Assembly (NCBI GenBank): GCA_963783365.1
Contig: CAWANI010000009.1
Span: 418,406 to 482,405 of the forward strand
Source of the DNA: an uncultured delta proteobacterium
GTDB lineage: Bacteria; Desulfobacterota; Desulfuromonadia; Desulfuromonadales; CAWANI01
Length of the DNA: 64,000 nucleotides
Direction: 5' to 3'
Positions 5,378 through 63,583 of this stretch are shown here, piece by piece. The notes under the pieces were generated by a model. That model saw only the letters and a list, made by a program, of their open reading frames with translations. It was not told the origin of the DNA and did no database searches. How positions within the stretch are numbered: position 1 is the stretch's first letter; every line of letters starts with the position of its first letter. A program made the position numbers and the translations under genes.

Positions 5378-6256
5378 TCAATAGGTAAGCTTCTTTTTGC
5401 GGATGCGTTTTTTCACCCGGGCGATTCTCTGGTTCAGAATCTGCTGGTCCCGGTAGGTGGTTCGCAAACCTTCCAATTCGCCGAGCGCTTTTTTCAACTC
5501 TCCCTGGCTCTCGAGGACCGTCGCCAGACCGAAGCGGGCTTCGGCGGCGAAGGGGTTCTTCGGCCAATGGCGAAAAACCCGGCGAAACGCCTTTTCGGCC
5601 GCGGCCGCGTTGCCATCGAGGGAATAGGCGACCGCGATGCGGTAGGCCGCCTCTGCGGCCAGGGGGCTGGCCGGGTAATTTTTGAGCAGGCTTTCGAATT
5701 CGATCCGGGCCTGTTCGAAGTTGTTCCGGCGAAAATAGGTATCGGCGATCTCGTATTGGATATGATCCGGATCGGGAGCCCCGCTGTCGAGGAGTTTCTG
5801 GTAAGCGAGCAGGGCATTTCCGTAATCCATGAGCCGGTATTTGTAAATATCGGCGATCTGCTGCCGGGCCCGGATAGCCAGCGCACTGCCCGGATAATCC
5901 CGCACCACCAGCAGAAAGTCGAGCAGGGCCTCGCGGGGGTGTTTCAGATTCAGCTCGAGAGTCTCCCCTGCCTGAAAAAGAGCGCTGGGCGCCAGCCGAA
6001 ACCGGGGATGGTGCCGGTAAATGGATTGAAAGGTCGCTACGGCCCGTTCGGACTCTCCGCGCTCCACCTGAGCTTTTCCTCGGGCAAATTTTCCGGCGAG
6101 AATCCGATCGGAACGACGTCCCCAAAAAAACGCCCCTCCGCTCCCAAAAAGAGCCAACAGGATGAAGGCCAGCAGCAGCGGGCGGCGCTTAGAGTTCCTC
6201 TTCCGGTGCCTCTTCTCCTCCTGAAAAAGCCTCTTCTTCAGCTTCTCGACTTCCAT
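5378..6256 (-). CDS. Membrane-anchored tetratricopeptide-repeat protein
   Basis: ORF 5378..6256. One N-terminal hydrophobic helix ([19 protein letters not shown]) followed by repeated TPR-like A/Y/L patterns. The start is uncertain because it overlaps the gyrA 3' end by 68 nt. Confidence 0.6.
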
Positions 6257-16288: not shown

Positions 16289-17923
16289 ATGGAAAACAGA
16301 AATCTGATCATAGCCCTCGTCCTGATGCTTGTCGTCTGGGTGGCCTTTACCGTTTTCTTTCCGACCCCTCAAAAGGGACAGGGACCGCCGGTAACCCAAA
16401 AGAGCACCGAGTCCCAGCTTGCGCTGCAACCGAAAAATAAGACCGAAGTAAAAGCAAAAGCGGTTGTGGCCCAACCGCTAAGCGGCCAATCGATGACTCC
16501 AATCGTGGCGGCGCGCGGCGAGCGTGACCTGACCATCGATACGGATCTCTTTCGGGCTGTTTTCACCAACGCCGGGGCGCGCCTTAAAAGTTTAAAACTA
16601 AAAAAATACTTCGTTTCGACCTCTCCGGGTGCGGCAAAGGTTTCGCTGGTCGATGTCAAAGATGCCCGGCTGGCCAGCTTGCGTACCAGTGGCAGCGATG
16701 GTTTGAAACTGCCCGCCGATGCCCTGTTCAGCATCTCGATCAAGGATAATTCAATCCGGCTGCAGGGGAATGAATCGCGAGATATCGTTTTTTCCTATAA
16801 GAATAATAACGGCCTGGTTCTGCAGAAAATCTATACTTTATACGGGGATAGCTATAAATTCGGTCTAAAACTGCGCTTGGTTCAAGAGGGCGTTACACCC
16901 GTCAGTGGGAGGGTGGACCTCTCCCTGGTGCATCCATGGAATGAATCGATGGAAGGGGGACGCTATTCCTTTGTCGGTCCGGTGTCCCTGGTAGGCGAGA
17001 AGGTAAAGACTGAAAAAGTTAAAGACCTCAAGGACAAACCGATCACCTATCAGAGCGACCTGGTTTGGACGGCCTTTGAAAATAAGTTTTTCATTGGTGC
17101 CGTGGTTCCGCTTAAAAATGCCGCGACCCAGGTCCATATTCAGAATCCGGATGGAATCGTCGAAAATACCCTGCAAAGTCCCCCTTTGACTCTCGATCAG
17201 GGACAGGCGGTAACCTTGGATTACCTGCTTTACTTTGGGCCCAGGGATCTGGATATTCTTAAAAAGGTCGATCATCAACTTAATAAGGCGATCGATTTCG
17301 GCTTCTTCGGGCCGATTGCCCGTCCACTGCTCAGCTTTCTAAAATTCTTCTACCGTTACGTGGGGAATTACGGTGTCGCCATTATTCTGCTCACCGTGAT
17401 TATCAAACTACTTTTCTGGCCCCTGACGCAAAAGAGCTATACGTCCATGAAGGCGATGCAGACCCTTCAACCACAAATGCAGAAAATACGCGAAAAACAC
17501 AAAAACGACAAGGAACGTCTCAACAAAGAAATTATGGAACTCTATAAGAAAAACCGGGTCAATCCTCTGGGCGGATGTCTGCCCATGATTATTCAGATCC
17601 CCGTGTTTTTTGCCCTTTACGAAGTCCTGCTGAGATCGATTGCTCTGCGACAGGCACCGTTTATTTTTTGGCTGACCGATCTTTCGAGCAAAGACCCCTA
17701 CTATATAACGCCCATTATTATGGGGGTCACCATGTTTATTCAACAGAAGATGAGTCCAACCACGATGGATCCCACCCAGGCGAAATTGTTTCTGGCAATG
17801 CCCATCGTATTTACTTTTCTCTTTCTGAATTTTCCTTCGGGTCTCGTCGTGTACTGGCTTGTCAATAACCTGTTGACCATCCTGCAGCAGTATTTTATTA
17901 ATCGAAAACCCCAAGTCGCCTGA
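16289..17923 (+). CDS. yidC: Membrane protein insertase YidC
   Basis: 544-aa ORF. N-terminal TM helix plus periplasmic domain. Conserved C-terminal core LYKKNRVNPLGGCLPMIIQIPVFFALY. Confidence 0.95.
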   Translation: MENRNLIIALVLMLVVWVAFTVFFPTPQKGQGPPVTQKSTESQLALQPKNKTEVKAKAVVAQPLSGQSMTPIVAARGERDLTIDTDLFRAVFTNAGARLKSLKLKKYFVSTSPGAAKVSLVDVKDARLASLRTSGSDGLKLPADALFSISIKDNSIRLQGNESRDIVFSYKNNNGLVLQKIYTLYGDSYKFGLKLRLVQEGVTPVSGRVDLSLVHPWNESMEGGRYSFVGPVSLVGEKVKTEKVKDLKDKPITYQSDLVWTAFENKFFIGAVVPLKNAATQVHIQNPDGIVENTLQSPPLTLDQGQAVTLDYLLYFGPRDLDILKKVDHQLNKAIDFGFFGPIARPLLSFLKFFYRYVGNYGVAIILLTVIIKLLFWPLTQKSYTSMKAMQTLQPQMQKIREKHKNDKERLNKEIMELYKKNRVNPLGGCLPMIIQIPVFFALYEVLLRSIALRQAPFIFWLTDLSSKDPYYITPIIMGVTMFIQQKMSPTTMDPTQAKLFLAMPIVFTFLFLNFPSGLVVYWLVNNLLTILQQYFINRKPQVA

Positions 17924-24864: not shown

Positions 24865-25012
24865 CCATAAAACATAACGACTTTATATTTATAGATTCCT
24901 AAAGGGGGAAATCCGGAGTGCGGGGGAAAAGATCCTTGACAATCAAAGGGTCATATGATAGCTATTCCCTGTTTTACCTGGAGGTAAAGCATTTTTTAAT
25001 CTCTAGCTCTAA

Positions 25013-25027
25013 TGTATACAGTATACC
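25013..25027. promoter_or_regulatory. Operator-like palindrome upstream of the atp operon
   Basis: TGTATAC-A-GTATACC, 42 nt upstream of the GTG of the first atp gene. It nearly duplicates the palindrome in the GntR promoter at 35156-35170. Confidence 0.45.
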
Positions 25028-25068: not shown

Positions 25069-25494
25069 GTGAGCAAAATCGATTGGACCATCTTTCTTCA
25101 GGCAGCCAACTTTCTGGTATTGATGGTGGTGCTGAACTTTCTGTTGTACCGGCCTGTGCGAGGAATTCTCAAGTTGCGCCGGGAAAAGATCGCAGACGAT
25201 TTTGACAGGGCAAAGGATTTAGAACAGCGTATCGACAGTAAAATGGCCGCCTACCAGGAGCGTCTGGAGGAGGCCAAACGTAAGGCAAATCAGGAAAAGG
25301 CCACGTTTCGCGCAACGGCCATCGAGGAGGAGACTGCGCTGGTGACCCGGGCCCGCGAGGAGGCGACAGGCCATCTGCAGACCATTAAAAACCGCGTGGC
25401 CGCCGAAGCCAAAGAAGCCCGCTCGGCCCTGGGTGCAGAGGTGCAGAATCTGGCCTCCCAGGTTGCCGCCAAGGTCCTCGGGAGGAATCTGTAA
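25069..25494 (+). CDS. ATP synthase F0 subunit B'
   Basis: GTG start. One N-terminal TM helix (FLQAANFLVLMVVLNFLLY) plus a long charged helix. First of two tandem b-type subunits. Confidence 0.85.
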   Translation: MSKIDWTIFLQAANFLVLMVVLNFLLYRPVRGILKLRREKIADDFDRAKDLEQRIDSKMAAYQERLEEAKRKANQEKATFRATAIEEETALVTRAREEATGHLQTIKNRVAAEAKEARSALGAEVQNLASQVAAKVLGRNL

Positions 25495-25497
25495 AAA

Positions 25498-26103
25498 ATG
25501 AAACCGATCATGGCCATAAAACTGAAAAAAAGGGCACTCGTCTCTATCGCCATCCTGGTCCTCGTGGGACTCGCCGCCACGGCCCTGGCTGCTAACGGCG
25601 AGGGGCAGGCCGCAGAGAGCGGGATCATGCTGAAGGACTTTCTCTACCGGTGCCTGAATTTCGTTATTCTTTTCGGCGCCTTGGCCTATTTCGCAGCCAA
25701 GCCGATTCGTCAGGCCTTGGCCGGGCGACGCGAGGGCGTGGAGAAGGCTCTGCGTGAAGCAGAGACGACCAAGAACGAGGCGGAAGCGAAGTTCGCCGAA
25801 TACGACCGAAAACTGAACCAGGCTGCCGCCGAAATCGACGATCTCACGGCCGCCATCAAGCGGGAGGGCGAGATGGAGCGGGAGAAAATCCTGGCCAGCG
25901 CCCGGGAGACGGCGGAAAAAATCAAACAGGAAGCCCAGAAATCCGCCACCTTCGAGGTAGCCAAGGCCCGCGTCGAATTGCGCCGGGAGGCTGCCCAGAT
26001 GGCGATCGAAATCGCCGAAGACCTGTTGAATAAGAACCTCACGAAGGCGGATCAAACCCGCCTGGTCGACGAATATATGCTGAAGGTGGGAGAATTACAT
26101 TGA
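25498..26103 (+). CDS. atpF: ATP synthase F0 subunit B
   Basis: TM helix plus an extended coiled-coil. Position before atpH. Confidence 0.85.
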   Translation: MKPIMAIKLKKRALVSIAILVLVGLAATALAANGEGQAAESGIMLKDFLYRCLNFVILFGALAYFAAKPIRQALAGRREGVEKALREAETTKNEAEAKFAEYDRKLNQAAAEIDDLTAAIKREGEMEREKILASARETAEKIKQEAQKSATFEVAKARVELRREAAQMAIEIAEDLLNKNLTKADQTRLVDEYMLKVGELH

Positions 26104-26642
26104 GTATCAGCGCGATATCCAGGAGGTATGCCAAGGCCCTGGTGAACCTGGGGGTCGAGCAGCAGATGGTGGAGCAGTACGGGGAGGAGTTGGGAAAGGT
26201 CCGATCGGCCTTCGCCGTCGAGGACGTTCTGCGCCTCGTTCTGGAAAGCCCGACGTTCCTGTTTGAAAAGAAGGCCGCCATTCTCAAGGACCTGGCCCAG
26301 GCCCTGACCCTCTCCGAGGGAATGAAAAAGTTCCTGGGGCTTCTGCTCGAAAAGGATCGACTCCGATATCTTCCCCAGATAGAGGGGAACTACCGACAGT
26401 TCGCCGACGAGCTTTCCGGACTTCTGCGAGCTCGGGTCACCACGGCGGCCGACCTCGGCGGCAAGCAGCAGGATGCCATCCGGACCGGGCTGGAAAAGCA
26501 AACGGGCAAGAAGGTGGATTTGAGCACCAAGCTTGACCCCTCTCTGATTGCCGGCGTCCAGGTGGCCATCGGAGGGAAGGTGTTCGATGGCAGCATCAAG
26601 ACTCAATTGAAACGGATTGAAGATACCTTAAAGAAGGGGTGA
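26100..26642 (+). CDS. atpH: ATP synthase F1 subunit delta (OSCP)
   Basis: TTG start overlapping the atpF stop. RRYAKALVNL N-terminus typical of delta/OSCP. Confidence 0.88.
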   Translation: MSISAISRRYAKALVNLGVEQQMVEQYGEELGKVRSAFAVEDVLRLVLESPTFLFEKKAAILKDLAQALTLSEGMKKFLGLLLEKDRLRYLPQIEGNYRQFADELSGLLRARVTTAADLGGKQQDAIRTGLEKQTGKKVDLSTKLDPSLIAGVQVAIGGKVFDGSIKTQLKRIEDTLKKG

Positions 26643-28160
<1,518 letters not shown>

Positions 28161-28343
28161 TCAAGCCGGCAACCCGGGATGGAATCCGAGGCGGTTTTAG
28201 CGGAGATCGGAAATTCAGGGTTCATGAACGGGTCGGCCGTCAGGTTCCTTTATCCGCCGCTGCACGGTAGCCGCCAAGGCGGAACAGGACCGTTTCCGAA
28301 GGAAGTCAATCTGACCCAGTTCGCACGCGGAAGGTTTGGATAG

Positions 28344-30676
<2,333 letters not shown>

Positions 30677-30740
30677 TTCATTGAAGGAGCGGCGGGGCCT
30701 CTCAGGCGAGGCTCCGCCTCACCGGTAAAGGACGTTCGGA

Positions 30741-31163
30741 ATGGCAGAGAAGCTCAGACTGGAAATGGTCACACCGTACAAGGAGGTCCTTTCGGAGGAG
30801 GTGGACGAAGTCACCGCTCCAGGATCGATCGGCGAACTTGGCATCTTGCCGGGGCATACACCGATGCTGACGACTCTCAAGGTCGGCGAATTTATCTACC
30901 GGCAAGGAAACGAGTCCTTTCATGTGGCCGTGAACTGGGGTTATGTGGAGGTTGAGAGCGACAAGGTGACGGTGCTGGTCGAGACCGCCGAGCCGGCGCA
31001 GGAGATCGACCTGGAACGGGCCAAAGCGGCTCTGGGCCGGGCCGAGGAGGAGCTGAAAAAGCTCTCTCCCGAAGACAAGGATTTTCTCGTTATGCAGGCG
31101 GCCCTGGAACGGGCGGCCATCCGCGTACAGGTCGCCGGCCGTCGGGCCCAGCGGGGACACTGA
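30741..31163 (+). CDS. atpC: ATP synthase F1 subunit epsilon
   Basis: 140 aa. Last gene of the cluster, with epsilon-like N-terminal beta-sandwich and C-terminal helices. Confidence 0.92.
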   Translation: MAEKLRLEMVTPYKEVLSEEVDEVTAPGSIGELGILPGHTPMLTTLKVGEFIYRQGNESFHVAVNWGYVEVESDKVTVLVETAEPAQEIDLERAKAALGRAEEELKKLSPEDKDFLVMQAALERAAIRVQVAGRRAQRGH

Positions 31164-31252: not shown

Positions 31253-31984
31253 TTACTCTTTGCGCTCCCGCTGCAGAATGATCGGCAGCTTCTCCTGAAC
31301 GAAAACCAGATGATCCATCATGCTTGTCTTGGCCAGTTCGGGGTCATGGGCCCGTATCGCCTCGAAAATGGTGCGGTGCTGATTCATCAGGGGTTCGAGA
31401 AAGCCTTCTTCCCGGTAAAATTCCGTCAAGGCCAATTCGATGGTGGCGTGCCAGAGTCCACGAATGGTGTCGAGGACATGGAGCTGCAGGGTATTATGGG
31501 TGGCGCCGGTAATGACATAGTGGAAGCGGGCGTCGAGAGCCGGGTCCCATCCTCCTTTGCTCGATTGCCGCTCCATTTCCTTGATGAGATCTTCTAATTG
31601 CTGGAGTTCCTCGGTGCTGATGCGGCTGGCAGCCAGATAGGCGGACCAACTCTCCAATCCCATGCGCACCTCGAGCAGGGCCTGGAGCAGATTGGGGTTG
31701 CCGTCGACCATGGTCGCCAGCGGGTCGGAGAGGGTCGTAGCGGTCAACGATTTTACATAGGTTCCCCCGCCCTGGCGCGACTCAACCAGACCCATGGCTT
31801 CGAGGACCATGAGCGCCTCTCGCACCGAGGGACGGCTGACCCCCAACATTTCGGAGAGATCCCGCTCGGAGGGAATCCGTTCCCCCGGCTTAAGATGCCC
31901 TTCTGAAATGAGGCTTTTGATCTGTTCGACGATTTCTTCCGAGATTTTTTTCGGACGGATCGGCTTAAAGACGATACTGGTCAT
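31253..31984 (-). CDS. GntR-family transcriptional regulator, FadR/FCD subfamily (PdhR/LldR-like)
   Basis: wHTH ERDLSEMLGVSRPSVREAL plus a C-terminal all-helical FCD-type domain. Confidence 0.88.
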   Translation of the reverse strand: MTSIVFKPIRPKKISEEIVEQIKSLISEGHLKPGERIPSERDLSEMLGVSRPSVREALMVLEAMGLVESRQGGGTYVKSLTATTLSDPLATMVDGNPNLLQALLEVRMGLESWSAYLAASRISTEELQQLEDLIKEMERQSSKGGWDPALDARFHYVITGATHNTLQLHVLDTIRGLWHATIELALTEFYREEGFLEPLMNQHRTIFEAIRAHDPELAKTSMMDHLVFVQEKLPIILQRERKE

Positions 31985-32006
31985 GCCATTGCTCCATGCG
32001 GATTTT

Positions 32007-32017
32007 TGGTATGACCA
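32007..32017. promoter_or_regulatory. TGGT-N3-ACCA palindrome (FadR-subfamily operator type)
   Basis: TGGTATGACCA, 23 nt upstream of the GntR gene start (31984) in the divergent GntR/dinB intergenic region. Confidence 0.5.
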
Positions 32018-32097
32018 CTTCTATCATGTGCACAACCAAAGGTCAAGAGTTTGTCGTGTGAGCTTGAAGTTAAAGTTCCGGCGGAGTGTGGGTGACG

Positions 32098-33306
32098 ATG
32101 GAGAGAAAAATACTGCATCTCGACATGGATGCCTTTTTTGCCGCGGTGGAACAGGTCGATCGACCAGAGTATCGCGGCTTGCCGGTGATCGTGGGCGGCC
32201 CCATCGGAAGGGGCGTTGTCAGCGCCTGCTCTTACGAGGCGCGCGCCTTCGGAGTGCGGTCGGCCATGGCCATGGCGCGAGCGGTCAGCCTCTGCCCCAA
32301 CGCGGCGGTGCTGCCGGTACGCATGGCCCGCTACCGGGAGGTGTCGAAGCGCATTTTTCAGATTTTCAGCCGCTATACCGACTGCATCGAACCCCTCTCC
32401 ATCGACGAGGCATTTCTCGATGTAACCGACTGCCAGCGGCTGTTCGGCCCCCCGGCGACCATTGCCGCGCAGATCAGAGCCGCGGTGCGCGTCGAAACGG
32501 GGCTGACGGTCAGCGCCGGGATCGCGCCGAACAAGTTTCTGGCCAAGTTGGCCTCTGAGAGCGGCAAACCCGATGGTCTGCTGGAAGTCACCCCTCAGGA
32601 AATAGAGAACTTCCTCCTGCCTCTTCCCCTGGAGAAGATCTGGGGCATCGGCAGGGTCACTGCGGAGCGGCTCGCCAGTCAGGGCCTCCATACCGTCCGG
32701 GAGCTGCGGGAGGTCCCCCTGGACCGGCTGATCAGTTGGTTCGGCAGTCAGGGAGCGCAGCTCTATCGGTTGGCCCGCGGGCAGGACGAGCGCCCTGTTA
32801 CGGGCGCCTCTGAGGTGAAGTCGGTCGGGCACGAGGAAACATTTTCCCGAGACCTGTGGGACCGACAAGCTCTTCGTCTGGAGCTTCTGGATCTGGCCGA
32901 ACGGGTGGCCGGCCGCCTGCGGGCAAAGGGGCTGGTCGGGCGAGGTGTTTCCGTGAAGGTCCGCTTCGCCGATTTCAGTACCGTCACCCGCAGCCGGACC
33001 CTCGCGGAGGGAACGGCCCACTCGGGGGAGATCTATCGGCAGGGGGAGGCCCTGCTGAGCAAGACCGAAGCAGGTCGTCGGGCGGTACGGTTGCTCGGAC
33101 TCAGCGTCACACAGTTGGCACCCGAGGCGACCGCCCAAGGAGAGCTGTTTGCAGGGAAGGAACACCGGCTGGCTGACCTTGACCGTGCGATTGACCGCCT
33201 CCGGGAGCGCTATGGGGACGGCGGTATCCGCCGGGGGTCGCTCCTTGAAAAGCAAGAAGGGAGCTCATCGGATAAGAAAAGGAGCAACCCCGGCAAGGGA
33301 TCGTAG
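32098..33306 (+). CDS. dinB: DNA polymerase IV (Y-family)
   Basis: ILHLDMDAFFAAVE, SIDEAFLDVT. ATG 32098 lies within ORF 32086..33306. Confidence 0.95.
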   Translation: MERKILHLDMDAFFAAVEQVDRPEYRGLPVIVGGPIGRGVVSACSYEARAFGVRSAMAMARAVSLCPNAAVLPVRMARYREVSKRIFQIFSRYTDCIEPLSIDEAFLDVTDCQRLFGPPATIAAQIRAAVRVETGLTVSAGIAPNKFLAKLASESGKPDGLLEVTPQEIENFLLPLPLEKIWGIGRVTAERLASQGLHTVRELREVPLDRLISWFGSQGAQLYRLARGQDERPVTGASEVKSVGHEETFSRDLWDRQALRLELLDLAERVAGRLRAKGLVGRGVSVKVRFADFSTVTRSRTLAEGTAHSGEIYRQGEALLSKTEAGRRAVRLLGLSVTQLAPEATAQGELFAGKEHRLADLDRAIDRLRERYGDGGIRRGSLLEKQEGSSSDKKRSNPGKGS

Positions 33307-34038
33307 CAGGGCCGGCCGATCATGGGCCTCCAGGGTCATGCTCGGCCGCGCCGCCAGCGCCCCAACCTGAGCGAACAGAGCACCGAAGTCAATGCTCCCC
33401 TCCCCCACCGGCAGGTGGTCATCGGCGCGACCGAAATTGTCGTGCAGATGCAGATGAATGGTCCGCGACCCGAGAGCGAAGAACCATTCGTCCATCGACA
33501 GGGAGCAAAAGAGGTGCCAGTGTCCCACGTCGAAACAATGGCCGAGAACGGGAGAATCGAGCTCGGCCAACAGGGTTGCCAGAGGGGTCGGCTTCCTTTC
33601 AAAGACATTTTCCAGCGCCATGGCGCATCCCTGCCGACTCGCACGATCTATAAAGGGGGGCCAGAACCGCAGGGCCTGTTCGAGCCAGAGCTGGTCCTTG
33701 CCGCCGTATTTCCAGCGTTCGAATCCCGGGTGAAAAACCACCAGCCGGGCCCCGAGCCGATCGGCAGCTTCCAGGGTCTGCAGGAAGCGGCGCCGGGTCG
33801 CCTCGGCCACCAGCGGTTCGAGGGCGCCGGGGTTGAGATCATGGAAAGGCGCATGAACGCTGACCGCCAGCCCTGCCGCTGCCAGCGCCCTGCCGGCGTT
33901 GTCGAGCGATGCGGCCGGCGCCCGATCGAGGTCGGTTCCCTGGAAGGCCACCTCAGGCTGAAGACCCCGCTCGATCAGAAAGGGGAGCGTCGATTCCAAC
34001 AGGCGCCAGGGCACATGGACGTGAAGCGGATTAGACAC
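33265..34038 (-). CDS. Sugar phosphate isomerase/epimerase family protein (xylose isomerase-like TIM barrel)
   Basis: 257-aa ORF with AP_endonuc_2-like pattern (VHAPF, VVFHPG, ALEN, HLHDN). Confidence 0.75.
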   Translation of the reverse strand: MSNPLHVHVPWRLLESTLPFLIERGLQPEVAFQGTDLDRAPAASLDNAGRALAAAGLAVSVHAPFHDLNPGALEPLVAEATRRRFLQTLEAADRLGARLVVFHPGFERWKYGGKDQLWLEQALRFWPPFIDRASRQGCAMALENVFERKPTPLATLLAELDSPVLGHCFDVGHWHLFCSLSMDEWFFALGSRTIHLHLHDNFGRADDHLPVGEGSIDFGALFAQVGALAARPSMTLEAHDRPALLRSLAGVAPFLIR

Positions 34039-35044
34039 TGGGCACCTCTCCCGAGGCGAACCGTTCCAGGTTGAGGATGGCGGTGCGCTCTCCCAGGGTG
34101 ATCAGGATATCCCCCGCGTCGATCAGCGTGGTCGACTTGGGGTTGAAGGTCATCTGGCCATCGGCCTTTTTGATCCCGACGATGATGATTCCCCACTCCC
34201 GCCGAACGCCGGAGGAAACGAGGGTCTTTTGTACGAGGTGCGAGTCCGCCGCAACCCGAATTTCTTCCAATTGCAGCTCAAGGTTCTTGCCGGCGGTGGC
34301 GATCTCGATAAAATCGACGACCGAGGGGCGCAGAACCGCCTGCGCCATGCGGGTGGCGCCGATGATATAGGGGGAGATGACCTTGCTCGCCCCGGCGCGC
34401 CGCAGTTTTTTCTCGGAACCCTCCTCGCCGGCCCGGGCAAGGATGAAAAGATCAGGGTTCAGGCCCCGGGCCGTGAGGGTGATGTACACGTTTTCGGTAT
34501 CCGAGGTGACCGCCGTGATCAGTCCCTTGGCGCGCTGAATTCCGGCGGCGACCAGCGTCTCGTCGTCGGTGGCGTCCCCGGCGACGAAGAGACGCCCCTC
34601 ATTGGCCAGCTTTTCACAGAGGCCGGCGTCCTTCTCGACCACCACGAAGGGCAGCGGGCGGGCCTGGAATTCCTTGCAGATAAGGCCCCCGATCCGGCCG
34701 TAGCCGCAGATGATGTAGTGCCCCTCCAGTTTGCCGATCTGTTTTTCCAATTTTTTCCTCCCCAGTACCTGGCGAAGCTGCCCTTCCACCATGAACTGAA
34801 CCAAACTACCGATCGCATAGGCGATGATGCCGACCCCGAAAAGAATCAGAAACAGGGTGAAAACCCTCCCCGACGGGGAGAGGGGGTGGACTTCTCCATA
34901 GCCGACGGTCGCCAGGGTGATCACGGTCATGTAGAGAGAATCGAAAAGAGGCCACCCTTCGATCAGGGCATACCCGAAGGTACCCAGACCGATGATAAGG
35001 ATTAGAATGACAAAGGAATATTTGAGGTGGCGGATCGAATCCAT
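34031..35044 (-). CDS. Potassium channel protein with RCK/TrkA-N and TrkA-C domains
   Basis: Selectivity filter TVGYGE. RCK Rossmann motif ICGYGRIGG. Start placed at ATG 35044 (MDSIRHLK); the ORF track starts at 35101. Confidence 0.88.
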   Translation of the reverse strand: MDSIRHLKYSFVILILIIGLGTFGYALIEGWPLFDSLYMTVITLATVGYGEVHPLSPSGRVFTLFLILFGVGIIAYAIGSLVQFMVEGQLRQVLGRKKLEKQIGKLEGHYIICGYGRIGGLICKEFQARPLPFVVVEKDAGLCEKLANEGRLFVAGDATDDETLVAAGIQRAKGLITAVTSDTENVYITLTARGLNPDLFILARAGEEGSEKKLRRAGASKVISPYIIGATRMAQAVLRPSVVDFIEIATAGKNLELQLEEIRVAADSHLVQKTLVSSGVRREWGIIIVGIKKADGQMTFNPKSTTLIDAGDILITLGERTAILNLERFASGEVPSV

Positions 35045-35144
35045 CGGTTTTCCCAACGCTGAGATTGCTGCAAGTCTAGCCGGGAAACCAGAAAAAAACA
35101 AGGAGATAGCGGACCACGAAGAGGGATGAGAGAGTAGAAAATGC

Positions 35145-35172
35145 TTGACATCATATGTATACTGTATACAAT
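35145..35172 (+). promoter_or_regulatory. Strong sigma70-type promoter with an embedded palindromic operator
   Basis: TTGACA (35145-35150), 16-nt spacer, TACAAT (35167-35172). The palindrome TGTATAC-T-GTATACA (35156-35170) spans the spacer and the -10 element. It lies 17 nt upstream of the GntR ORF. Confidence 0.65.
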
Positions 35173-35188
35173 TTAATCAAACCGAAAC

Positions 35189-35917
35189 GTGTTGGGGAGA
35201 TTTTCCGTGAAGAGAAAACCGATCGAGCGCCATCAGACGTTGAGGGAAAAGATCCTCGAGACGATTCGCGAGGCCATCCTGAAAGGAACCCTCAAGGCGG
35301 GGGAAAAGGTGGCCGAACCCGAATTGGCCGAAAGATTCGGCATCAGTCGCACGCCGATCCGCGAGGCCTTCCGTCAACTCGAGTCGGAAGGGTATCTCAC
35401 CGTGATTCCCCGCAAGGGCGCCGTCGTCACCTCCCTTTCCGAACGGGATGTGGAAGAGTTTTACGCCATCAAAAGTATTCTTGAGGGATATGCCGCGAGA
35501 ATGGCGGCGGAAAACCTCAGCGCCAAGGATATCGAGCGTCTCGAGACCATCAACGATCGCCTTGAACAGCTCGCCGAGGAAGGTGACATCAAAACCTACT
35601 TCCGGGTCCACAACGAGTTCCACGAACTTTTCATCCGGGCCGCCGGCAACGAAAAGTTGCTCGAACTCATCGGCCAGCTGATGATGAAGTTCAACCGCCT
35701 GCGGATGGCCTCGTTGTCCCTGCCCGGCCGCATGCAGATTTCGGTGCAGGAGCATAAGAAAATTCTGGATGCCTTTCGGTCTCACGACGGGGAGATGGCG
35801 GACAACCTGGTCCGGCAGACCGCCGCCTTCGGCGGAAAGGTCCTGATCCAGAGTATGGCCAAAGAGGAAGGGCGCCGGGTCGAAAACTCCGTGCTGCAGC
35901 GTCTCGTAGACGTCTGA
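35189..35917 (+). CDS. GntR-family transcriptional regulator, FCD domain
   Basis: wHTH EPELAERFGISRTPIREAFRQLESEG plus an FCD-type C-terminal domain. GTG start at 35189 or 35207. Confidence 0.88.
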   Translation: MLGRFSVKRKPIERHQTLREKILETIREAILKGTLKAGEKVAEPELAERFGISRTPIREAFRQLESEGYLTVIPRKGAVVTSLSERDVEEFYAIKSILEGYAARMAAENLSAKDIERLETINDRLEQLAEEGDIKTYFRVHNEFHELFIRAAGNEKLLELIGQLMMKFNRLRMASLSLPGRMQISVQEHKKILDAFRSHDGEMADNLVRQTAAFGGKVLIQSMAKEEGRRVENSVLQRLVDV

Positions 35918-40200: not shown

Positions 40201-40922
40201 CAAGGGGTGGGCTTCGAGGGCAGCCGCAGGGGTGACAATTTTGTTTTGGATCGGGACCAATGAGGGTGGAGCGGCTCTGATCAAATAGGTAGAGATATCC
40301 CTGTTTTCCCCAAACGGATGTCGGCCAGGTTTTCGAAAAAACTGCTTTTTAGCAGGTCGACGGAACCGCCGAGAACAGCGCGGATTTGCCCTGTGGGGTC
40401 CTTGATGGGGGCGGCGAACGTTATCAGGGGGTGATGAGGCTTATCGCTCGAAAAGTATACTTTGGACAGGCAGGGTTTCCCGGTGACGACGATACGGGCG
40501 AAAAAGTCGTGTTTTGACCAATTTCGATCGGCCACGAGCGGTCCGTGGGGGGATGCAGCCAATAGCCGGCCCGAAGGAGAGAAAACAGAAATTCCGTTGT
40601 TGAAGAATTGCTTGATTCCCACGCCCCGCATTTGATCAAGAAAGTCCTGGGTTTTTTCGGCGGATTTCAGTACGCCGGGGGAGATGGTCTGGGCCGTTCC
40701 GGAGATAAATGCCCGGCCCGTGTCGATCATGGAATCCACCTCGGTGGCGATTTCCGAAACCAGAACAAATTGTTGGGTGGAAATTTCGGCTTTAAGGCTT
40801 TTTTCAAAATAGGAAAAGCACAAAATGCTGAACAGCCCCAGAAGAAACAGAACCAATAAGGCAACCACCAGGGTTATCTTGGTTTTTAAACTCCAAAACC
40901 GCAAAAATTCCCCCTCTCCCAT
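37273..40922 (-). CDS. Hybrid sensor histidine kinase (TM-Cache-TM-HAMP-PAS-PAS-GAF-HisKA-HATPase-REC), split into two ORFs by frameshift(s) as sequenced
   Basis: ORF 40281..40922 gives a TM helix plus the first half of a Cache-like domain, ending ...IRLGKTG. ORF 37273..40284 continues with the second half (GFEGTGERV...FKHLQNTGWILGADFP), a TM helix, HAMP, PAS, H-box GIAHDFNNLL and a C-terminal receiver. A third frame reads TGYLYLFDQSR across the junction. Confidence 0.85.
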
Positions 40923-57890: not shown

Positions 57891-60800
57891 GGCTGAAATC
57901 TCCTTGCGTGTTTTTCGGCTTTTTTGCCGTAGATGAGCCAGTAGACGACGGGGATCACCACCAGGGTGAAGGCGGTCGAGGCGAAGACCCCGAAGATGAT
58001 CGACCAGGCGAGCCCCGAGAAGATCGGATCGAGGGTGATGACCCAGTTGCCGAGCAGAGCGGCGCCCGCCGTGAGGAGGATCGGCCGCAGGCGCACGGCG
58101 CCGCTTTCGATGATCGCCTCCTTGAGCGGAACGCCCCGGCGCAGGGCGTGGTGGATGAAGTCGATGAGGATGATCGAGTTGCGCACCACGATCCCGGCCA
58201 GGGCGATCATGCCGATCATCGCCGTGGCGGTGAAGAAGACGGGAGTGTTGTACCCTCCCACCTGGTGGTTCATGATCAGGTTGAGGAGCCAGAAGCCGGG
58301 CATGATGCCGATCATCGTCAGCGGGATCGCGCCCATAATGATCAGCGGCATGGCGTAGGAGCTGGTCTCGATCAGCAGCAGGATGTAGATCATGACCAGG
58401 GCTGCGCCGAAGGCGATGCCCAGGTCGCGAAAGACATCGAGCGTGATCTTCCACTCCCCCTCGCCGTTCCAGACCACGCTGGTGCCGGTGGGCAGGGAGT
58501 GCTTCTTGAACCACGAGGAGAGATTGAGAATGGCATTGACCGGGCTCTTGCCGGCCATATTGCCGAAGACGTAGACCACCCGCTGGAGATTCTTGTGGTA
58601 GATGGTCGGGGCGAGGGTTTCGTGTTCAAAGCGCCCCAGTTCCGAGAGACGCACAAGTTTGTTCCCGGCCCCGTGGACATCGAGGGCGCCCAGCTCGGAG
58701 GCCGAGGAGCGGCTGCGCAGAGGCAGGCGCTCCTCGATCCGAAGGGGATTGCGCTCCGAGGGGACGTGAACTGTGCCCACTGTCTGGCCGCCCAGGGCTA
58801 AGGCCAGGGTGCGGGCGATCTGCGCGTCGCTCACCCCGGAGAGAGCCGCCTTTTCCTTGTCGGGGACGAAGTGAAGCCGCCGCTGGGGGGCTTCGACGGT
58901 ATCGTCGACATCGACCACTTTGTCCTCCCGCTCCATGCGGGCCCGCACGATCTTGGCCGAGGCGATCTGCTGAGCGTAGCTGATCCCGGGGCGGGCGTAG
59001 ATCTCGGCGGTGAGGGTGGCGATGACCGGCGGGCCGGGGGGGACCTCGACGATTTTCAGATTGGCGCCGTGGGCCCGGGCGATGCGGGTCAGATCGTTGC
59101 GCAGCCGCAGGGTGATCTCGTGGCTCTGCTGGGCGCGCTCACCCTTGGGGGCGAGGTTGACGCGGATATCGGCCACGTTCGGCCCGTGGCGCATGTAGTA
59201 GTGGCGGACCATGCCGTTGAAGTCCATGGCGCTGGCGGTGCCGACGTAGGATTCGAAGTCGGTCACCTCGTTGACCGTGCCCAGGTAGTCCTCCAGGGCC
59301 CGCACCGCCGCGTCGGTCGTCTCCAGGGTGGTCCCCTCGGGCATGTCGACCACCAGCTGGAACTCGTTCTTGTTGTCGAAGGGGAGCATCTTCATCGGCA
59401 CCAGGTTGAACAGCGGCATGGCCATGGAGCCGAGCAGCAGCACCACCACCGCCCCGACCAGCAGCCAGGCCTTGCGCCGCGAATCGATGAAGGGCTCGAG
59501 GATGCGCCGGTAGACCTGGTAGATGCGGCTCTCCTCGAGGACGAACTCCTTCTCCTGCTTGCCGTACTCCCCCTTGAGGACGTGGTAGCTCATCCAGGGG
59601 GTGATGGTGAAGGCGACCAGCAGCGACATCAGCATGGTCAGCGGGACGTTGATCGCCATCGGCCGCATGTAGGGCCCCATCATGCCGGTGATGAAGAGCA
59701 TCGGCAAAAAGGAGAGGATGACCGCCAGGGTCGCCAGGATCACCGGCGGCCGCACCTCGTCGACGGCGGAGAGGACCGCCTCGCGCGGCGGCTCCTTCTT
59801 CATCTTGAAATGGCGGTAGATGTTCTCGACGTCGACGATGGGGTCGTCGACCAGCAGGCCCAGGGCCAGCACCAGGGCGAAGAGGGTGACCCGGTTGATG
59901 GTGTAGCCGAACCAGTAGTTGACCATCAGGGTCAGCGAATAGATGATCGGGATCGAGACCGAGACGATGAAGGCCTCGCGCCAGCCCAGGGCGAAGAGGA
60001 TCAGCGCGAGGACCGTCACCATGGCGATCAGCAGCTCCTCGATCAGCTCGTTGACCTTGTGGTTGGCGGTCTCGCCGTAGTCGCGGGTGACCCGCACCTG
60101 GATGTCGTCGGGGATGATCTGTCCCCTGCATGGCGTGCACGGCGTCGATCACCTCGTTGGCCACCACCACGGCGTTGGTCCCCTTCTTCTTGGCGACGGC
60201 GATGTTGACCGCCTGGTACTCGGTGCCCGTCGCGGCCGCCGCTTGGCGTCGCCGGCGGGGCCGAAGCGCAGCCGGGTGTAGGTCTGCGGCTCGGCCGGGC
60301 CGTCGCTGACCTTGGCGACGTCGCGCAGGTAGACCGGCGCGCCGTGGTCGACCCCGACCACCAGCCGCGCGACCTCGCGCGCCGAGCTGAAGAAGGTGCC
60401 GCCGCGCACCAGGATCTCCTGGTCGTCCCGCTCGAAAGCTGCCGGCCGGCAGCTCCAGGTTGGCGCCGGCAAGAGCCCGGCGCACGTCGAGCAGAGCGAT
60501 GCCCCGGGCGGCCATCGCCTCGGGATCGATCGCCACCCGCACCTGGCGGGGGCGGCCGCCGATGACCGTGGTCACCGAGGTGTTCTTCACCGACTGCAGC
60601 CGGTCGACCACCTCCTCGGCGACCCGGCGCAGCTCGTAGTCCGAATCGCTGCTTCGAGTAGAGGGTGAGGTTGACGATCGGCACGTCGTCGACGGCCACC
60701 GGCTTGATCACCCAGCCGGTCACCCCCGGCGGCACCAGGTCGGTGTGGGTGCTGATCTTGTTGTGCAGCTTGACCAGCGAGGCGATGCGGTCCTCGCCGA

Positions 60801-61115
60801 CGTAGAAGCGGGCGGTGACCACCGCCATGCCGGGGCGGGACATGGAGTAGACGTACTCCACCCCGTCGACCTGCCAGAGGAGCTTCTCCAGGGGGGTGGC
60901 GACGAGCTTCTCCACCTCCTTGGCGCTCGCCCCCGGCATGTGGACGTAGACGTCGGCCAGCGGCACCACGATCTGCGGCTCCTCCTCCCGGGGGGTCAGC
61001 ATCAGCGCCGCGGCGCCGGCCACCAGGGCGAGCAGGATGAGGATGACCGACAGGTTGCCGTCGAGGAACTTGTCGACGATGCGGGTCGGCAGGGAGTGTT
61101 TCCGACGCTCGCCAT
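57887..61115 (-). pseudogene. RND efflux permease (CzcA/CusA/AcrB superfamily); 5' third disrupted by at least six frameshifts as sequenced
   Basis: ORF 57887..60097 is an intact 736-aa C-terminal part. The N-terminal part is spread over three frames: IVDKFLDGNLSVILILLAL..., VDRLQSVKNTSVTTVIGGRPRQVRV..., FERDDQEILVRGGTFF..., YQAVNIAVAKKKGTNAV... ATG at 61115. Confidence 0.85.
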
Positions 61116-61118
61116 CGA

Positions 61119-62232
61119 TCAGCCCTCCACCCGGGCGCCGTTGCGGGCCTGCTCGGTGCCGGTGGCGACGATGGTCTCGCCGGGGCGCAGCCCGGAGAGG
61201 ATCTCCACCTGCTCGCCGAGGGTGCGGCCGGTGCGTACCAGCCGAAAGTGCAGAATCCCTTTTTCGACCGTATAAATCGCCGGTTAGCTGCCCGCGGGTG
61301 ACCAAGGCGCTACGCGGAATGAGCAGCGTCTTCCGGCTGCCGCCGGCGAGGCTCGCCCGGGCGAACATGCCGGCGGAGAGCCCTTGAGCATCCTGGCAGG
61401 ACAATTTTGACTTCGAAGGAGCGGCTGCTGGGATCTGCCGCGGGAAGGATGTCTTTGACCTGGCCGGCAAAGGAGCGGCCGACAGCAGGCACCGTCGACG
61501 CTGAAGGAATCCCGCCGATTCGCACCTTCCCGAAAAGCGATCTCGGGCAGATTCACCCGCACCTGCCAGCTCCCCGCCGCGGTCGAGGACCAGCAGGGGC
61601 GTGCCGGGCATCACGGTCGTGCCCGCCTCCACCTTTTTGCGCACGATCCGCCCGGCAAAGGGGGCGACGACGCGGGTGTAGGAGAGGGCCGTGCGGGCCG
61701 CACCTCGTGCCGCGACGGCGCCGTCGCGGGCCGCTCGGGCGGCGGCGAACTGGTGCCGGGCCGTTTCCAGTTCGGTGCTGACGCGGTCCATCTCCTGCGG
61801 GGTGACCGCTTCGTCGGTGAACAGCCTGCGGTAGCGGGCTTCGGTCTTTCGAGCCAGCTCGAGCCGGGCCTGGGCTGCGGCCATTTCCCTTCTGCTTGCT
61901 GGAGCGCCGCTTTGGCTTCGGCCAGCCGATCGCCGGCAACGTTGTCGTCGAATGGTGAGCAGCGGCGCGCCCCGTCGGACACGGTCCCCCTCGCGGACCA
62001 GGATCCGGTCGACCTGGCCGTCGATGCGAGCGGCCAGGACCCCCCGGTCGGGGCTTTCGACCGTACCGACGAAGGTCTCGGTCCCGGTCACTGAGCCGGT
62101 GGCCACGGTGGCCAGGGTCACGCCCTTGATCACCGGAGGCTTCCCTCGGTGCGTCCCGGTTCGATGTTGCCTCCGCAGGCGGCCAGGATGAGCAAGGAGC
62201 AGCAGGCTGCAGCAGATGGCGGATTTCTTCAC
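61119..62232 (-). pseudogene. RND membrane-fusion (periplasmic adaptor) protein; at least eight frameshifts as sequenced
   Basis: GTG 62232 overlaps the OMP stop (GTGA). The lipobox LLILAACGG sits in a second frame. Pieces KPPVIKGVTLATV..., DDNVAGDRLAEAKAALQQAE, EMAAAQARLELARK..., VRIGGIPSASTVPAVGRSFAGQVKDI... and IYTVEKGILHFRLVRTG...ARVEG* lie in alternating frames. Confidence 0.8.
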
Positions 62233-63583
62233 GGCTTCACCTCGTCGGGCAGAAAAGTTTTCAGGAACGTCCCATTCTGGAAGCGGATGTTGCCGAGGGC
62301 CATGCAGCAGGCCGGCCTCGGCCTTCACGGCGTCGAGGCGGGCCTGGTCCAGGGCGCTCTGGGTGCCGAGCAGGTCGGAGAGATTGGCCAGTCCGGCCTG
62401 GTAGCGCTCCAGGGTCAGGCGGTGTCCCTCCTCGGCCTCCTTTACCGCCTCTTGGGCGGTGGCGAGGTTGAGGCGGGCTTCTTCGGCCCGCCGCTTGGCT
62501 TCCTCGACCTGCAGGTTCGCTTCGCGGGCGGCGTCGCAGACGCTGGGCATCGACGGCCCGCTTGAGGGCCTCGGCGCGGGCTGTTTCCTTCGGCCGCGCC
62601 GACAGCCGTCGAAGAGGTCCCAGGTGAGCCCGACCCCCACCGTCCAGCTGCTGCCGTCGGCGCCGAAGGGGGTGGAGGAGTCGTGCAGGGCGTAGGAGGC
62701 CTGCAGGCCGACCCTGGGAAGGTAGGCGGCCTTGCTCTGGCGGTAGGCGAGGTCGGCGGCCTGGGACTGCAGGGCGAGGGCCTGCAGGTCGGCCCGCTCG
62801 GGCTTGCCGGCGGATCGATTTGCTCGCCGAAGAGGGCGGGGGTCAGGGGGACGGCGATGTCGAGGTCGTCCGCCGGCCGGCCCAGGGCGAGGGCAAAGCG
62901 CCGGCGGGCGATGGCCAGGTCGTTTTCGACCGTCAGCAGGCGGCGTTCGGTCTCGGCGAGAAAGACCCTGGCGCGCAGCTCGTCGGCCTTGAGGCCGATG
63001 CCGGCCTGGCGGCGCTGGCTCGGCGACCCGCAGCATCTCCAGGGCGTCCTTGTGCGAGGCCTGCGCCCAGCCGAGGGCGGCGTGGGCCCGCTGCAGGGCG
63101 AGGTAGGCGGCATAGGCGCCAAAGGCGATCTGCTCTTCGCTCCAGCGGGCCGTGGCCGCGGCCGCCTCGGCTCCCTTCTGCGCCCGGTGGTAGCCGTAGC
63201 TGATGTCGGGGTTGAACAGGGGCTGCTCCAGGGTTACCTTGGTTTCGAAATCCCTGGTGGTGCCGGGATGATTGTAGGGGGCGGCGCTCGGGAAAAGAGT
63301 TGAGATCCTCCTGGTTGAGCGTCATGAACATGCTGTTGCCCGGCTCGTTGGTGATGGCGAAGTTTTCCGCCGCCGTCACCTTGGGCAGATAGTAGCTCTT
63401 GGCCTCCCCGGCGGCGTGGCGGGCGGCCAGGGCCTGCTGCCGCGCCGCCATCGGCGGCCGGCCGTTGGCTCACCGCCTCGCGCAGGGCCTGCTTCAACCC
63501 GACCGTTTTGGTGCGCGGCCATGGCGGCCGGCACCGAAAAGCAGGGAAATAACGATGAGTAAAATCAAACCTTTTTTGCTCAT
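62229..63583 (-). pseudogene. TolC-family outer-membrane efflux protein; at least eight frameshifts as sequenced
   Basis: ATG 63583 with signal peptide MSKKGLILLIVISLLFGAG. Later pieces TVGLKQALREAVS, MAARQQALAARHAAGEAKSYYLPKV..., YNHPGTTRDFETKVTLEQPLF..., GIGLKADELRARVFLAETE..., KPERADLQALALQSQAADLAYR... and LNLATAQEAVKEAEEGHRLTLERYQAG... lie in three frames. Confidence 0.8.

Follow-up and report, generated by a model that had tools for sequence, protein, structure and literature searches.

Twin GTATAC sites upstream of the ATP synthase operon and of a linked GntR/FCD regulator gene in a Desulfuromonas-type bacterium

The window analysed here, a single stretch of 64 kb from a Desulfuromonas-type bacterium, covers the region of the chromosomal origin, with the gene order gyrA, gyrB, recF, dnaN, dnaA, yidC, jag, mnmE, mnmG, rsmG, parA, parB, a bactofilin gene and the atp operon (Table 1). 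The order of the atp genes is identical in two of the related loci used for comparison (L001 and L003). Past the atp operon lies an apparent four-gene operon on the minus strand, encoding a TrkA-type K+ channel, a xylose-isomerase-like TIM barrel, a 424-residue protein and the regulator GntR1, and this operon runs divergent from gntR2. The two GntR/FCD genes that had been predicted nearby are thus both there. The 424-residue ORF (31981-33255, minus strand) sits between the TIM-barrel gene and GntR1 and has no Pfam match; in D. soudanensis and D. versatilis, a dinB-type polymerase gene on the opposite strand is found in this neighborhood instead. A strict scan for sigma-54 promoters across all loci (1.3 Mb) gave one match, TGGCACCTCTTTTGCT, a -24/-12-type sequence at 33504-33519 (minus strand) that is inside the TIM-barrel gene and ~260 nt upstream of the 424-residue ORF; this lone match is compatible with chance. 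Elsewhere in the window, a single long ORF at 60043-63036 (minus strand) has Pfam matches to an outer-membrane efflux protein, a membrane-fusion protein and the N terminus of an AcrB-type pump, and is probably an artefact of ORF picking or an overlapping gene set.

Table 1. Positions of the regulatory elements and genes discussed, numbered from the first base of the window
Feature	Position	Strand	Description
atp promoter-like element	24936-24964	+	TTGACA (24936-24941), 17-nt spacer ending in TGA (TG-extended -10), TAGCTA (24959-24964)
Hairpin followed by T-run	24970-24997	+	Between the promoter-like element and the operator; -9.5 kcal/mol, z = -3.1
O-atp, operator copy	25013-25027	.	TGTATACAGTATACC; two GTATAC hexamers at 7-bp spacing; 42 nt from its end to the atpF' start codon
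atpF'-atpF-atpH-atpA-atpG-atpD-atpC	25069-31163	+	ATP synthase subunits b', b, delta, alpha, gamma, beta, epsilon (Pfam); regulated target
GntR1	31253-31984	-	PdhR/LldR-like GntR/FCD regulator, directly downstream of atpC
TIM-barrel gene	33265-34038	-	Xylose-isomerase-like, 'iolE'-type gene; divergent from gntR2
K+ channel gene	34031-35053	-	TrkA-type; divergent from gntR2
gntR2 promoter	35145-35172	+	TTGACA, 16-nt spacer, TACAAT; 11 of 12 consensus positions
O-gntR2, operator copy	35156-35170	.	TGTATACTGTATACA; perfect 15-bp palindrome, intergenic between the K+ channel operon and gntR2
gntR2	35207-35917	+	GntR winged-HTH and FCD regulator, 236 aa (PF00392, 6.5e-19; PF07729, 1.9e-28)

Two short intergenic sequences, O-atp (site 1) and O-gntR2 (site 2), share the form GTATAC-N-GTATAC. 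Site 1 reads ATGTATACAGTATAC at 25012-25026, with the 13-mer core GTATACAGTATAC at 25014-25026, and site 2 reads ATGTATACTGTATAC at 35155-35169, with the core GTATACTGTATAC at 35157-35169. Site 2 is a perfect 7-1-7 palindrome (TGTATAC-T-GTATACA, 35156-35170), while in site 1 (TGTATAC-A-GTATACC, 25013-25027) the last base breaks the symmetry. The sites differ only by A or T at the central base, which equals the opposite-strand reading of the palindrome. GTATAC occurs five times in the window, four times in these two sites and once at 40455. With up to two mismatches allowed, GTATACNGTATAC has three matches in the 64 kb versus 0.17 expected, and none of 100 shuffles reached three; the third match, at 16831, carries two mismatches and falls in yidC. 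The matches at 16831 and 40455 were dropped as operators, both being within coding regions. The original prediction had described two copies that differ at the central base and form the only GTATAC pairs of the window, the first of them 42 nt from the first atp gene and downstream of a TTGACA hexamer at 24936. Each of these statements agrees with the sequence (there are two exact pairs and no others, and the GTG of atpF' is at 25069), and the accompanying estimate that a specified 14-mer is expected about 5e-4 times (128000/4^14) is arithmetically correct. The reading of O-atp and O-gntR2 as two copies of one operator is supported.

Site 2 is embedded in the promoter of gntR2, where it occupies the spacer together with the first half of the -10 hexamer. 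For comparison we used D. soudanensis, D. versatilis and 80 more species-level genomes, taking ±10 kb around the genes. The order bactofilin gene, atp operon, (GntR1), (K+ channel/TIM barrel), gntR2 is common among relatives, most Desulfuromonadales loci show a physical linkage between gntR2 and atp, and the linkage of K+ channel, TIM barrel and gntR2 is kept in both Desulfuromonadales and Geobacter-type contigs. A TGTATACNGTATACA-type site with at most one mismatch, and in nearly every case with none, precedes gntR2 by 44-90 nt in 82/82 Desulfuromonadales loci, a count that covers the loci that include upstream DNA. About 78 of the 82 share the same cTTGACA-N5-TGTATACNGTATACAAT architecture, and besides the operator no other conserved element is visible in the gntR2 promoters of these 82 loci. 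The protein is conserved as well: GntR2 identity across Desulfuromonadales is 70-89% (80-89% to many Desulfuromonas proteins), and its HTH region is, like the operator, essentially invariant. The exact GntR2 sequence of the window has no database record, whether V or M is taken as its first residue. A palindromic GT..AC-type operator that overlaps the regulator's own promoter is the arrangement of autoregulated GntR/FadR (FCD) repressor-operator pairs, and since site 2 and the -10 overlap, a protein bound here would occlude RNA polymerase. The gntR2 gene is certainly a target of the operator, and the K+ channel and TIM-barrel genes, which share the intergenic region that bears site 2, are possible further targets.

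The copy in front of the atp operon is conserved less strictly. When the upstream regions of atp were compared among relatives, a check that the original prediction had proposed, 21 of 33 related loci proved to have the exact 13-mer, placed 43-71 nt upstream of atpF' and with flanks that diverge freely; two more loci have the site with one mismatch and 10 have lost it. Outside the gntR2 and atp positions, the 1.25 Mb of loci hold few motif matches, these with two or three mismatches. By sequence comparison, the motif at gntR2 and atp has the clear phylogenetic footprint of an operator. A reading of the repeat as coincidence or as one copy of a dispersed family, in either case without regulatory function, has only the short length of the motif in its favor. 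The shuffles did not reach the observed count, there are just two copies in the window and each is in a promoter region, the position is kept in dozens of species while the flanks diverge, and an identical sequence has been experimentally footprinted in Geobacter. The conservation data therefore refute this reading, to which we give a negligible probability; the repeated GTATAC-N-GTATAC is a real, conserved repressor-binding site.

Loss of the atp copy in 10 of 33 relatives means that control of atp is dispensable. In L034, L041, L046 (Trichloromonas-type), L043 and L069, the atp operator is lost but the atp promoter-like element, the hairpin and a perfect gntR2 operator are all kept; since such relatives lose only the atp operator, control of atp has been dropped repeatedly while that of gntR2 was retained.

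The region before atpF' holds, in order, a promoter-like element, a hairpin with a T-run, the operator and a ribosome-binding site. The -35 hexamer of the promoter-like element is consensus and its -10 hexamer is weak, yet the pattern cTTGACA-N12-14-tgTGaTAGCaAT (tgTGaTAGC(a/t)AT) is kept upstream of atp in nearly all relatives, and the element (24936-24965) may be an unusual promoter or the site of another factor. The hairpin appears among terminator-like sites and has the look of a terminator or attenuator. Relatives have hairpins of differing sequence followed by a U-run at the same place (L001, L004, L030, L048, L050, L064, L081 and others). A search against Rfam gave no match in the window, so the leader hairpin does not belong to a known RNA family. 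It could serve as an attenuator in the leader or terminate transcription of the bactofilin gene that lies upstream. If the element at 24936 is the promoter, the operator would lie ~45-55 nt into the leader, and a protein bound there would block elongation as a roadblock. Alternatively, a weak proximal promoter, predicted to overlap the operator, would be occluded by the bound protein.

Control of ATP synthase through this operator has been known in Geobacter since 2010. Ueki and Lovley (2010, Nucleic Acids Res; PMC2817479) footprinted a repressor site at gltA of G. sulfurreducens, for which their primer sequences give TGTATACAGTATAC; the gltA lacZ-fusion primer -2T reads GTAAAATTGTATACAGTATACTA around the footprinted site. 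Site 1 of the window is TGTATACAGTATAC and site 2 is TGTATACTGTATAC, with a core identical to that of the gltA repressor site. The same study found the dyad-symmetric site upstream of acnB, icd, oorD, ato, frdC, nad, nuoA and sfrB, and also before the ATP synthase F0 b' gene (the paper's 'atpG', first in its operon), iolE (a sugar phosphate isomerase/epimerase in the list of site-bearing genes) and gntR (PMC2817479). The repressor is HgtR (GSU3364), a 62-residue, predicted ribbon-helix-helix (RHH) protein, sigma-54 dependent and induced by hydrogen. Purified HgtR shifted and footprinted the gltA, atpG, nuoA and gntR promoters, and the transcripts of these four genes were lower on hydrogen. Deletion of hgtR alone strongly derepressed gltA and nuoA, and its overexpression repressed gltA (PMC2817479). 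Later transcriptome papers cite HgtR regulation of atp.

An operator of this sequence that controls the ATP synthase operon and gntR has therefore already been described in the sister order, and the form of ATP synthase control that the original prediction called unusual has been in print since 2010. The window site and the HgtR operator of G. sulfurreducens are alike in their core TGTATACAGTATAC, in dyad symmetry and in repressive effect, and the two regulons share as targets the first gene of the ATP synthase b'-b-delta-alpha-gamma-beta-epsilon series, gntR and an iolE-type TIM-barrel gene. Placement is also alike, over -35/-10 or downstream of the start site; the published sites lie downstream of, at or upstream of start sites, with details for atp not given (PMC2817479). 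The differences are that the window belongs to a Desulfuromonas-type genome rather than Geobacter, that here gntR2 and its operator, not hgtR, are linked to the atp operon, that neither hgtR nor its Fe-hydrogenase-like sigma-54 activator turned up in the DNA examined, and that the 15-bp palindrome of the gntR2 operator is perfect here but usually has one mismatch in hgtR-linked contigs. The window site thus adds another genome to the known Geobacter regulon.

The original prediction had assigned the atp operon to the regulon of one of the two nearby GntR proteins. Membership of atpF'FHAGDC in the regulon of the operator is supported by conservation in relatives and by the Geobacter binding and expression data. 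As for the binder, the proposal survives in part: GntR1 is excluded by co-occurrence, HgtR is the only protein to have been footprinted on the site, and GntR2 is plausible. In favor of GntR1 acting at the atp site are its position next to the atp operon and its GntR/FCD architecture. However, it is missing in 16 of the 21 loci that keep the exact atp operator, its closest likeness is to PdhR and LldR, and there is no GTATAC pair near its own gene. Operators of PdhR and LldR are of the TGGT...ACCA type. Because of its absence from those 16 loci and its PdhR/LldR-like character, GntR1 was rejected as the binder, and a role for it at this site is very improbable.

GntR2 is a plausible candidate for the binder, and the Geobacter study contains data that bear on it. 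The expression primers for the G. sulfurreducens regulator GSU3370 encode MKKPMEKH... and ...AALQLDI, which match the termini of GntR2, and the primer used for primer extension of 'gntR' encodes ETIRDAII, which matches a GntR2 helix. GSU3370 is therefore almost certainly the GntR2 ortholog and the 'gntR' target, an orthology that is apparent from these peptide matches. Of 30 regulators, just three bound the gltA promoter fragment in vitro, GSU3370 among them, but it was judged an unlikely repressor since cell extracts gave another shift pattern; the gntR gene figures there as a target (PMC2817479). In favor of GntR2, then, its apparent ortholog shifted a gltA promoter fragment containing the site in a published gel shift, and a GTATAC core is documented for FadR/FCD-type operators, namely those of DipR (PMC11472048) and UxuR/ExuR (PMC8092373). 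We also count for it the site over its own -10 in 82/82 loci, the lack of any other conserved element in the gntR2 promoters, the invariance of both HTH and operator, the linkage to atp, and the lack of any hgtR in the window and 83 related loci. The state of the gntR2 operator points the same way, being perfect in atp-linked lineages and carrying one mismatch (GGATAC) in six of eight hgtR-linked contigs. Against GntR2 stand the published verdict on GSU3370 and the fact that, in Geobacter, deletion of hgtR alone derepresses gltA and nuoA. On this evidence GntR2 probably binds the operator, either alone or alongside HgtR.

We surveyed the HgtR family by scanning metagenomes. A first scan, which required the HgtR N terminus together with the C-terminal tail of the G. 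sulfurreducens protein, gave no matches. Scanning with the N terminus plus YNVISM, peptides derived from the primers, recovered more than 120 hgtR genes, with the consensus MGRMRENPRYNVISMR[IV]SDEERE...KSVSDIMREAME...KAA and weak similarity to RHH_1. In Geobacter-type contigs, hgtR lies 1-7 kb from the cluster of K+ channel gene, TIM-barrel gene and gntR2, and the GntR2 proteins of these hgtR-linked clusters are 66-71% identical to that of the window. In other hgtR-bearing metagenome-assembled genomes (MAGs), hgtR follows the Fe-hydrogenase-like sigma-54 activator, and the arrangement seen there was only activator-hgtR-RNase G. In hgtR-bearing MAGs, GTATAC-N-GTATAT lies ~67 nt upstream of hgtR itself (L204 at 9934, L206 at 9933, L195 at 737), and GTATACAGTATGC lies upstream of an sfrB-like gene (L204-L207, around 6072-6100). 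These operator-like sequences suggest that HgtR is autoregulated and that the published sfrB target is conserved.

Neither tblastn nor an HMM built from 105 sequences found hgtR in the 64-kb window or in 83 related loci (1.3 Mb, ±10 kb around gntR2 and atp), and a regular-expression search of six-frame translations for the HgtR fragments deduced from primers gave nothing meaningful in the window or in L001-L083. The Fe-hydrogenase-like sigma-54 activator was likewise not seen in the window. The family comprises 1168 clusters, some of them from MAGs labelled Desulfuromonadaceae or Desulfuromonadales, family labels that are ambiguous. The named matches are from Trichlorobacter, Geobacter and Oryzomonas, besides MAGs with ambiguous family labels, and no Desulfuromonas-named entry is among the best 120 HgtR matches; the matches of GntR2 do include Desulfuromonas.

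These results frame the main alternative, in which an HgtR-type RHH repressor encoded elsewhere in the genome is the sole binder and gntR2 is a mere target whose product recognizes another sequence. Two palindromic hexamers 7 bp apart suit two RHH dimers at least as well as one GntR dimer. The HgtR N terminus MGRMRENPRYNVISMR is as invariant as the operator, the sites before hgtR and sfrB fit an HgtR regulon, the family is large and includes MAGs with Desulfuromonadaceae or Desulfuromonadales labels, and the Geobacter shifts, footprints, deletion and overexpression all concern HgtR. However, hgtR is missing from the surroundings of gntR2 and atp in the window and 83 relatives, and its best 120 matches, some under ambiguous MAG family labels, include none named Desulfuromonas. 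Binding by HgtR alone also leaves unexplained why a near-invariably perfect GntR-type palindrome should lie over gntR2's own -10 in 82/82 genomes, and why GSU3370 binds the gltA promoter. We consider HgtR as the sole binder unlikely.

With somewhat better than even confidence, we propose as the best explanation overall that the site is a functional repressor operator of a Desulfuromonadia energy-metabolism regulon, with GntR2 favored as its binder. We infer from sequence that the site acts as an operator in this genome. Positions 25013-25027 would be one copy of the twin-hexamer operator that defines this conserved regulon, which in Geobacter is published as the HgtR regulon, with gltA, icd, frdC, nuoA, sfrB, the ATP synthase b' operon, iolE and gntR. 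In this lineage GntR2 would bind its own operator, giving autoregulation, as well as the atp copy, and would be released by a predicted ligand of its FCD domain; should the genome also encode an HgtR-type RHH repressor, that protein would act at the same operator. With protein bound at atp, the genes for the stalk and F1 would be expressed less, in step with the other members of the regulon. Several observations count against this explanation: the HgtR family is large, the absence of hgtR covers 64 kb here and ±10 kb in relatives, the atp copy is lost in a substantial share of relatives, and the promoter-like element is separated from the operator by a terminator-like hairpin.

More tentatively, and with confidence falling short of even, the GntR2/GSU3370 FCD family could be the ancestral master repressor acting at the twin GTATAC operator throughout Desulfuromonadia, responsive to a ligand and in direct control of ATP synthase and, elsewhere, of TCA-cycle and respiratory genes. 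HgtR would then have joined later, perhaps in Geobacterales only, as a second reader of this 13-bp operator, and two unrelated DNA-binding folds would integrate metabolite and hydrogen signals on a single operator.

The proposed GntR2 system resembles DipR, UxuR/ExuR and GntR of B. subtilis in combining a GntR winged HTH with an FCD domain, in its GTATAC-based palindrome, in the overlap with its own promoter and in repression by occlusion. B. subtilis GntR is an autoregulated repressor of the GntR/FadR subfamily (FCD) with a GTATAC-core operator. DipR/UxuR-type operators have a single GTATAC core with specific flanks, whereas here there are two full hexamers 7 bp apart, and their targets are a catabolic pathway, whereas here they are ATP synthase and energy metabolism, with GntR2 as the candidate binder. 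RHH repressors also act on short tandem repeats, as the omega repressor does on 7-bp heptads and MetJ on 8-bp metboxes. The likeness to omega and MetJ lies in two short symmetric units at 7-bp spacing, and by analogy one RHH dimer per hexamer, bound cooperatively, would fit; unlike in those systems, the window yielded no RHH gene.

Bacteria seldom subject the F1Fo ATP synthase to dedicated transcriptional repression, and such control matters for the metal-reducing, electrode-respiring Desulfuromonadia as a means of adjusting energy conservation to the electron donor. Our results extend the 'HgtR' operator from Geobacter to Desulfuromonas-type genomes, in which a highly conserved GntR/FCD regulator, encoded near the atp operon, closely accompanies it. 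If GntR2 binds, the published model, with HgtR as the sole repressor and gntR as a passive target, would need revision, and control of ATP synthase by a metabolite signal would become testable. What remains new is that a GntR/FCD regulator and an RHH protein may share one operator to control ATP synthase.

Some relatives carry more GTATAC sequences around gntR2. A second full site lies 27 nt before the gene in L050 and L059, and extra full sites or single GTATAC hexamers lie near the gntR2 operator, upstream of the -35 in L010, L033, L037, L053 and L076 and on the downstream side in L036, L045, L064, L040, L044 and L046; these hint at cooperative or auxiliary binding. Intergenic clusters of degenerate GTATAC sequences are also found ~2.3 kb past the gntR2 start (L048, ~12343; L058, ~12366; L082, ~9119; L042, ~11846). 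They adjoin a gene resembling an NAD-dependent epimerase and may correspond to the published 'nad' target.
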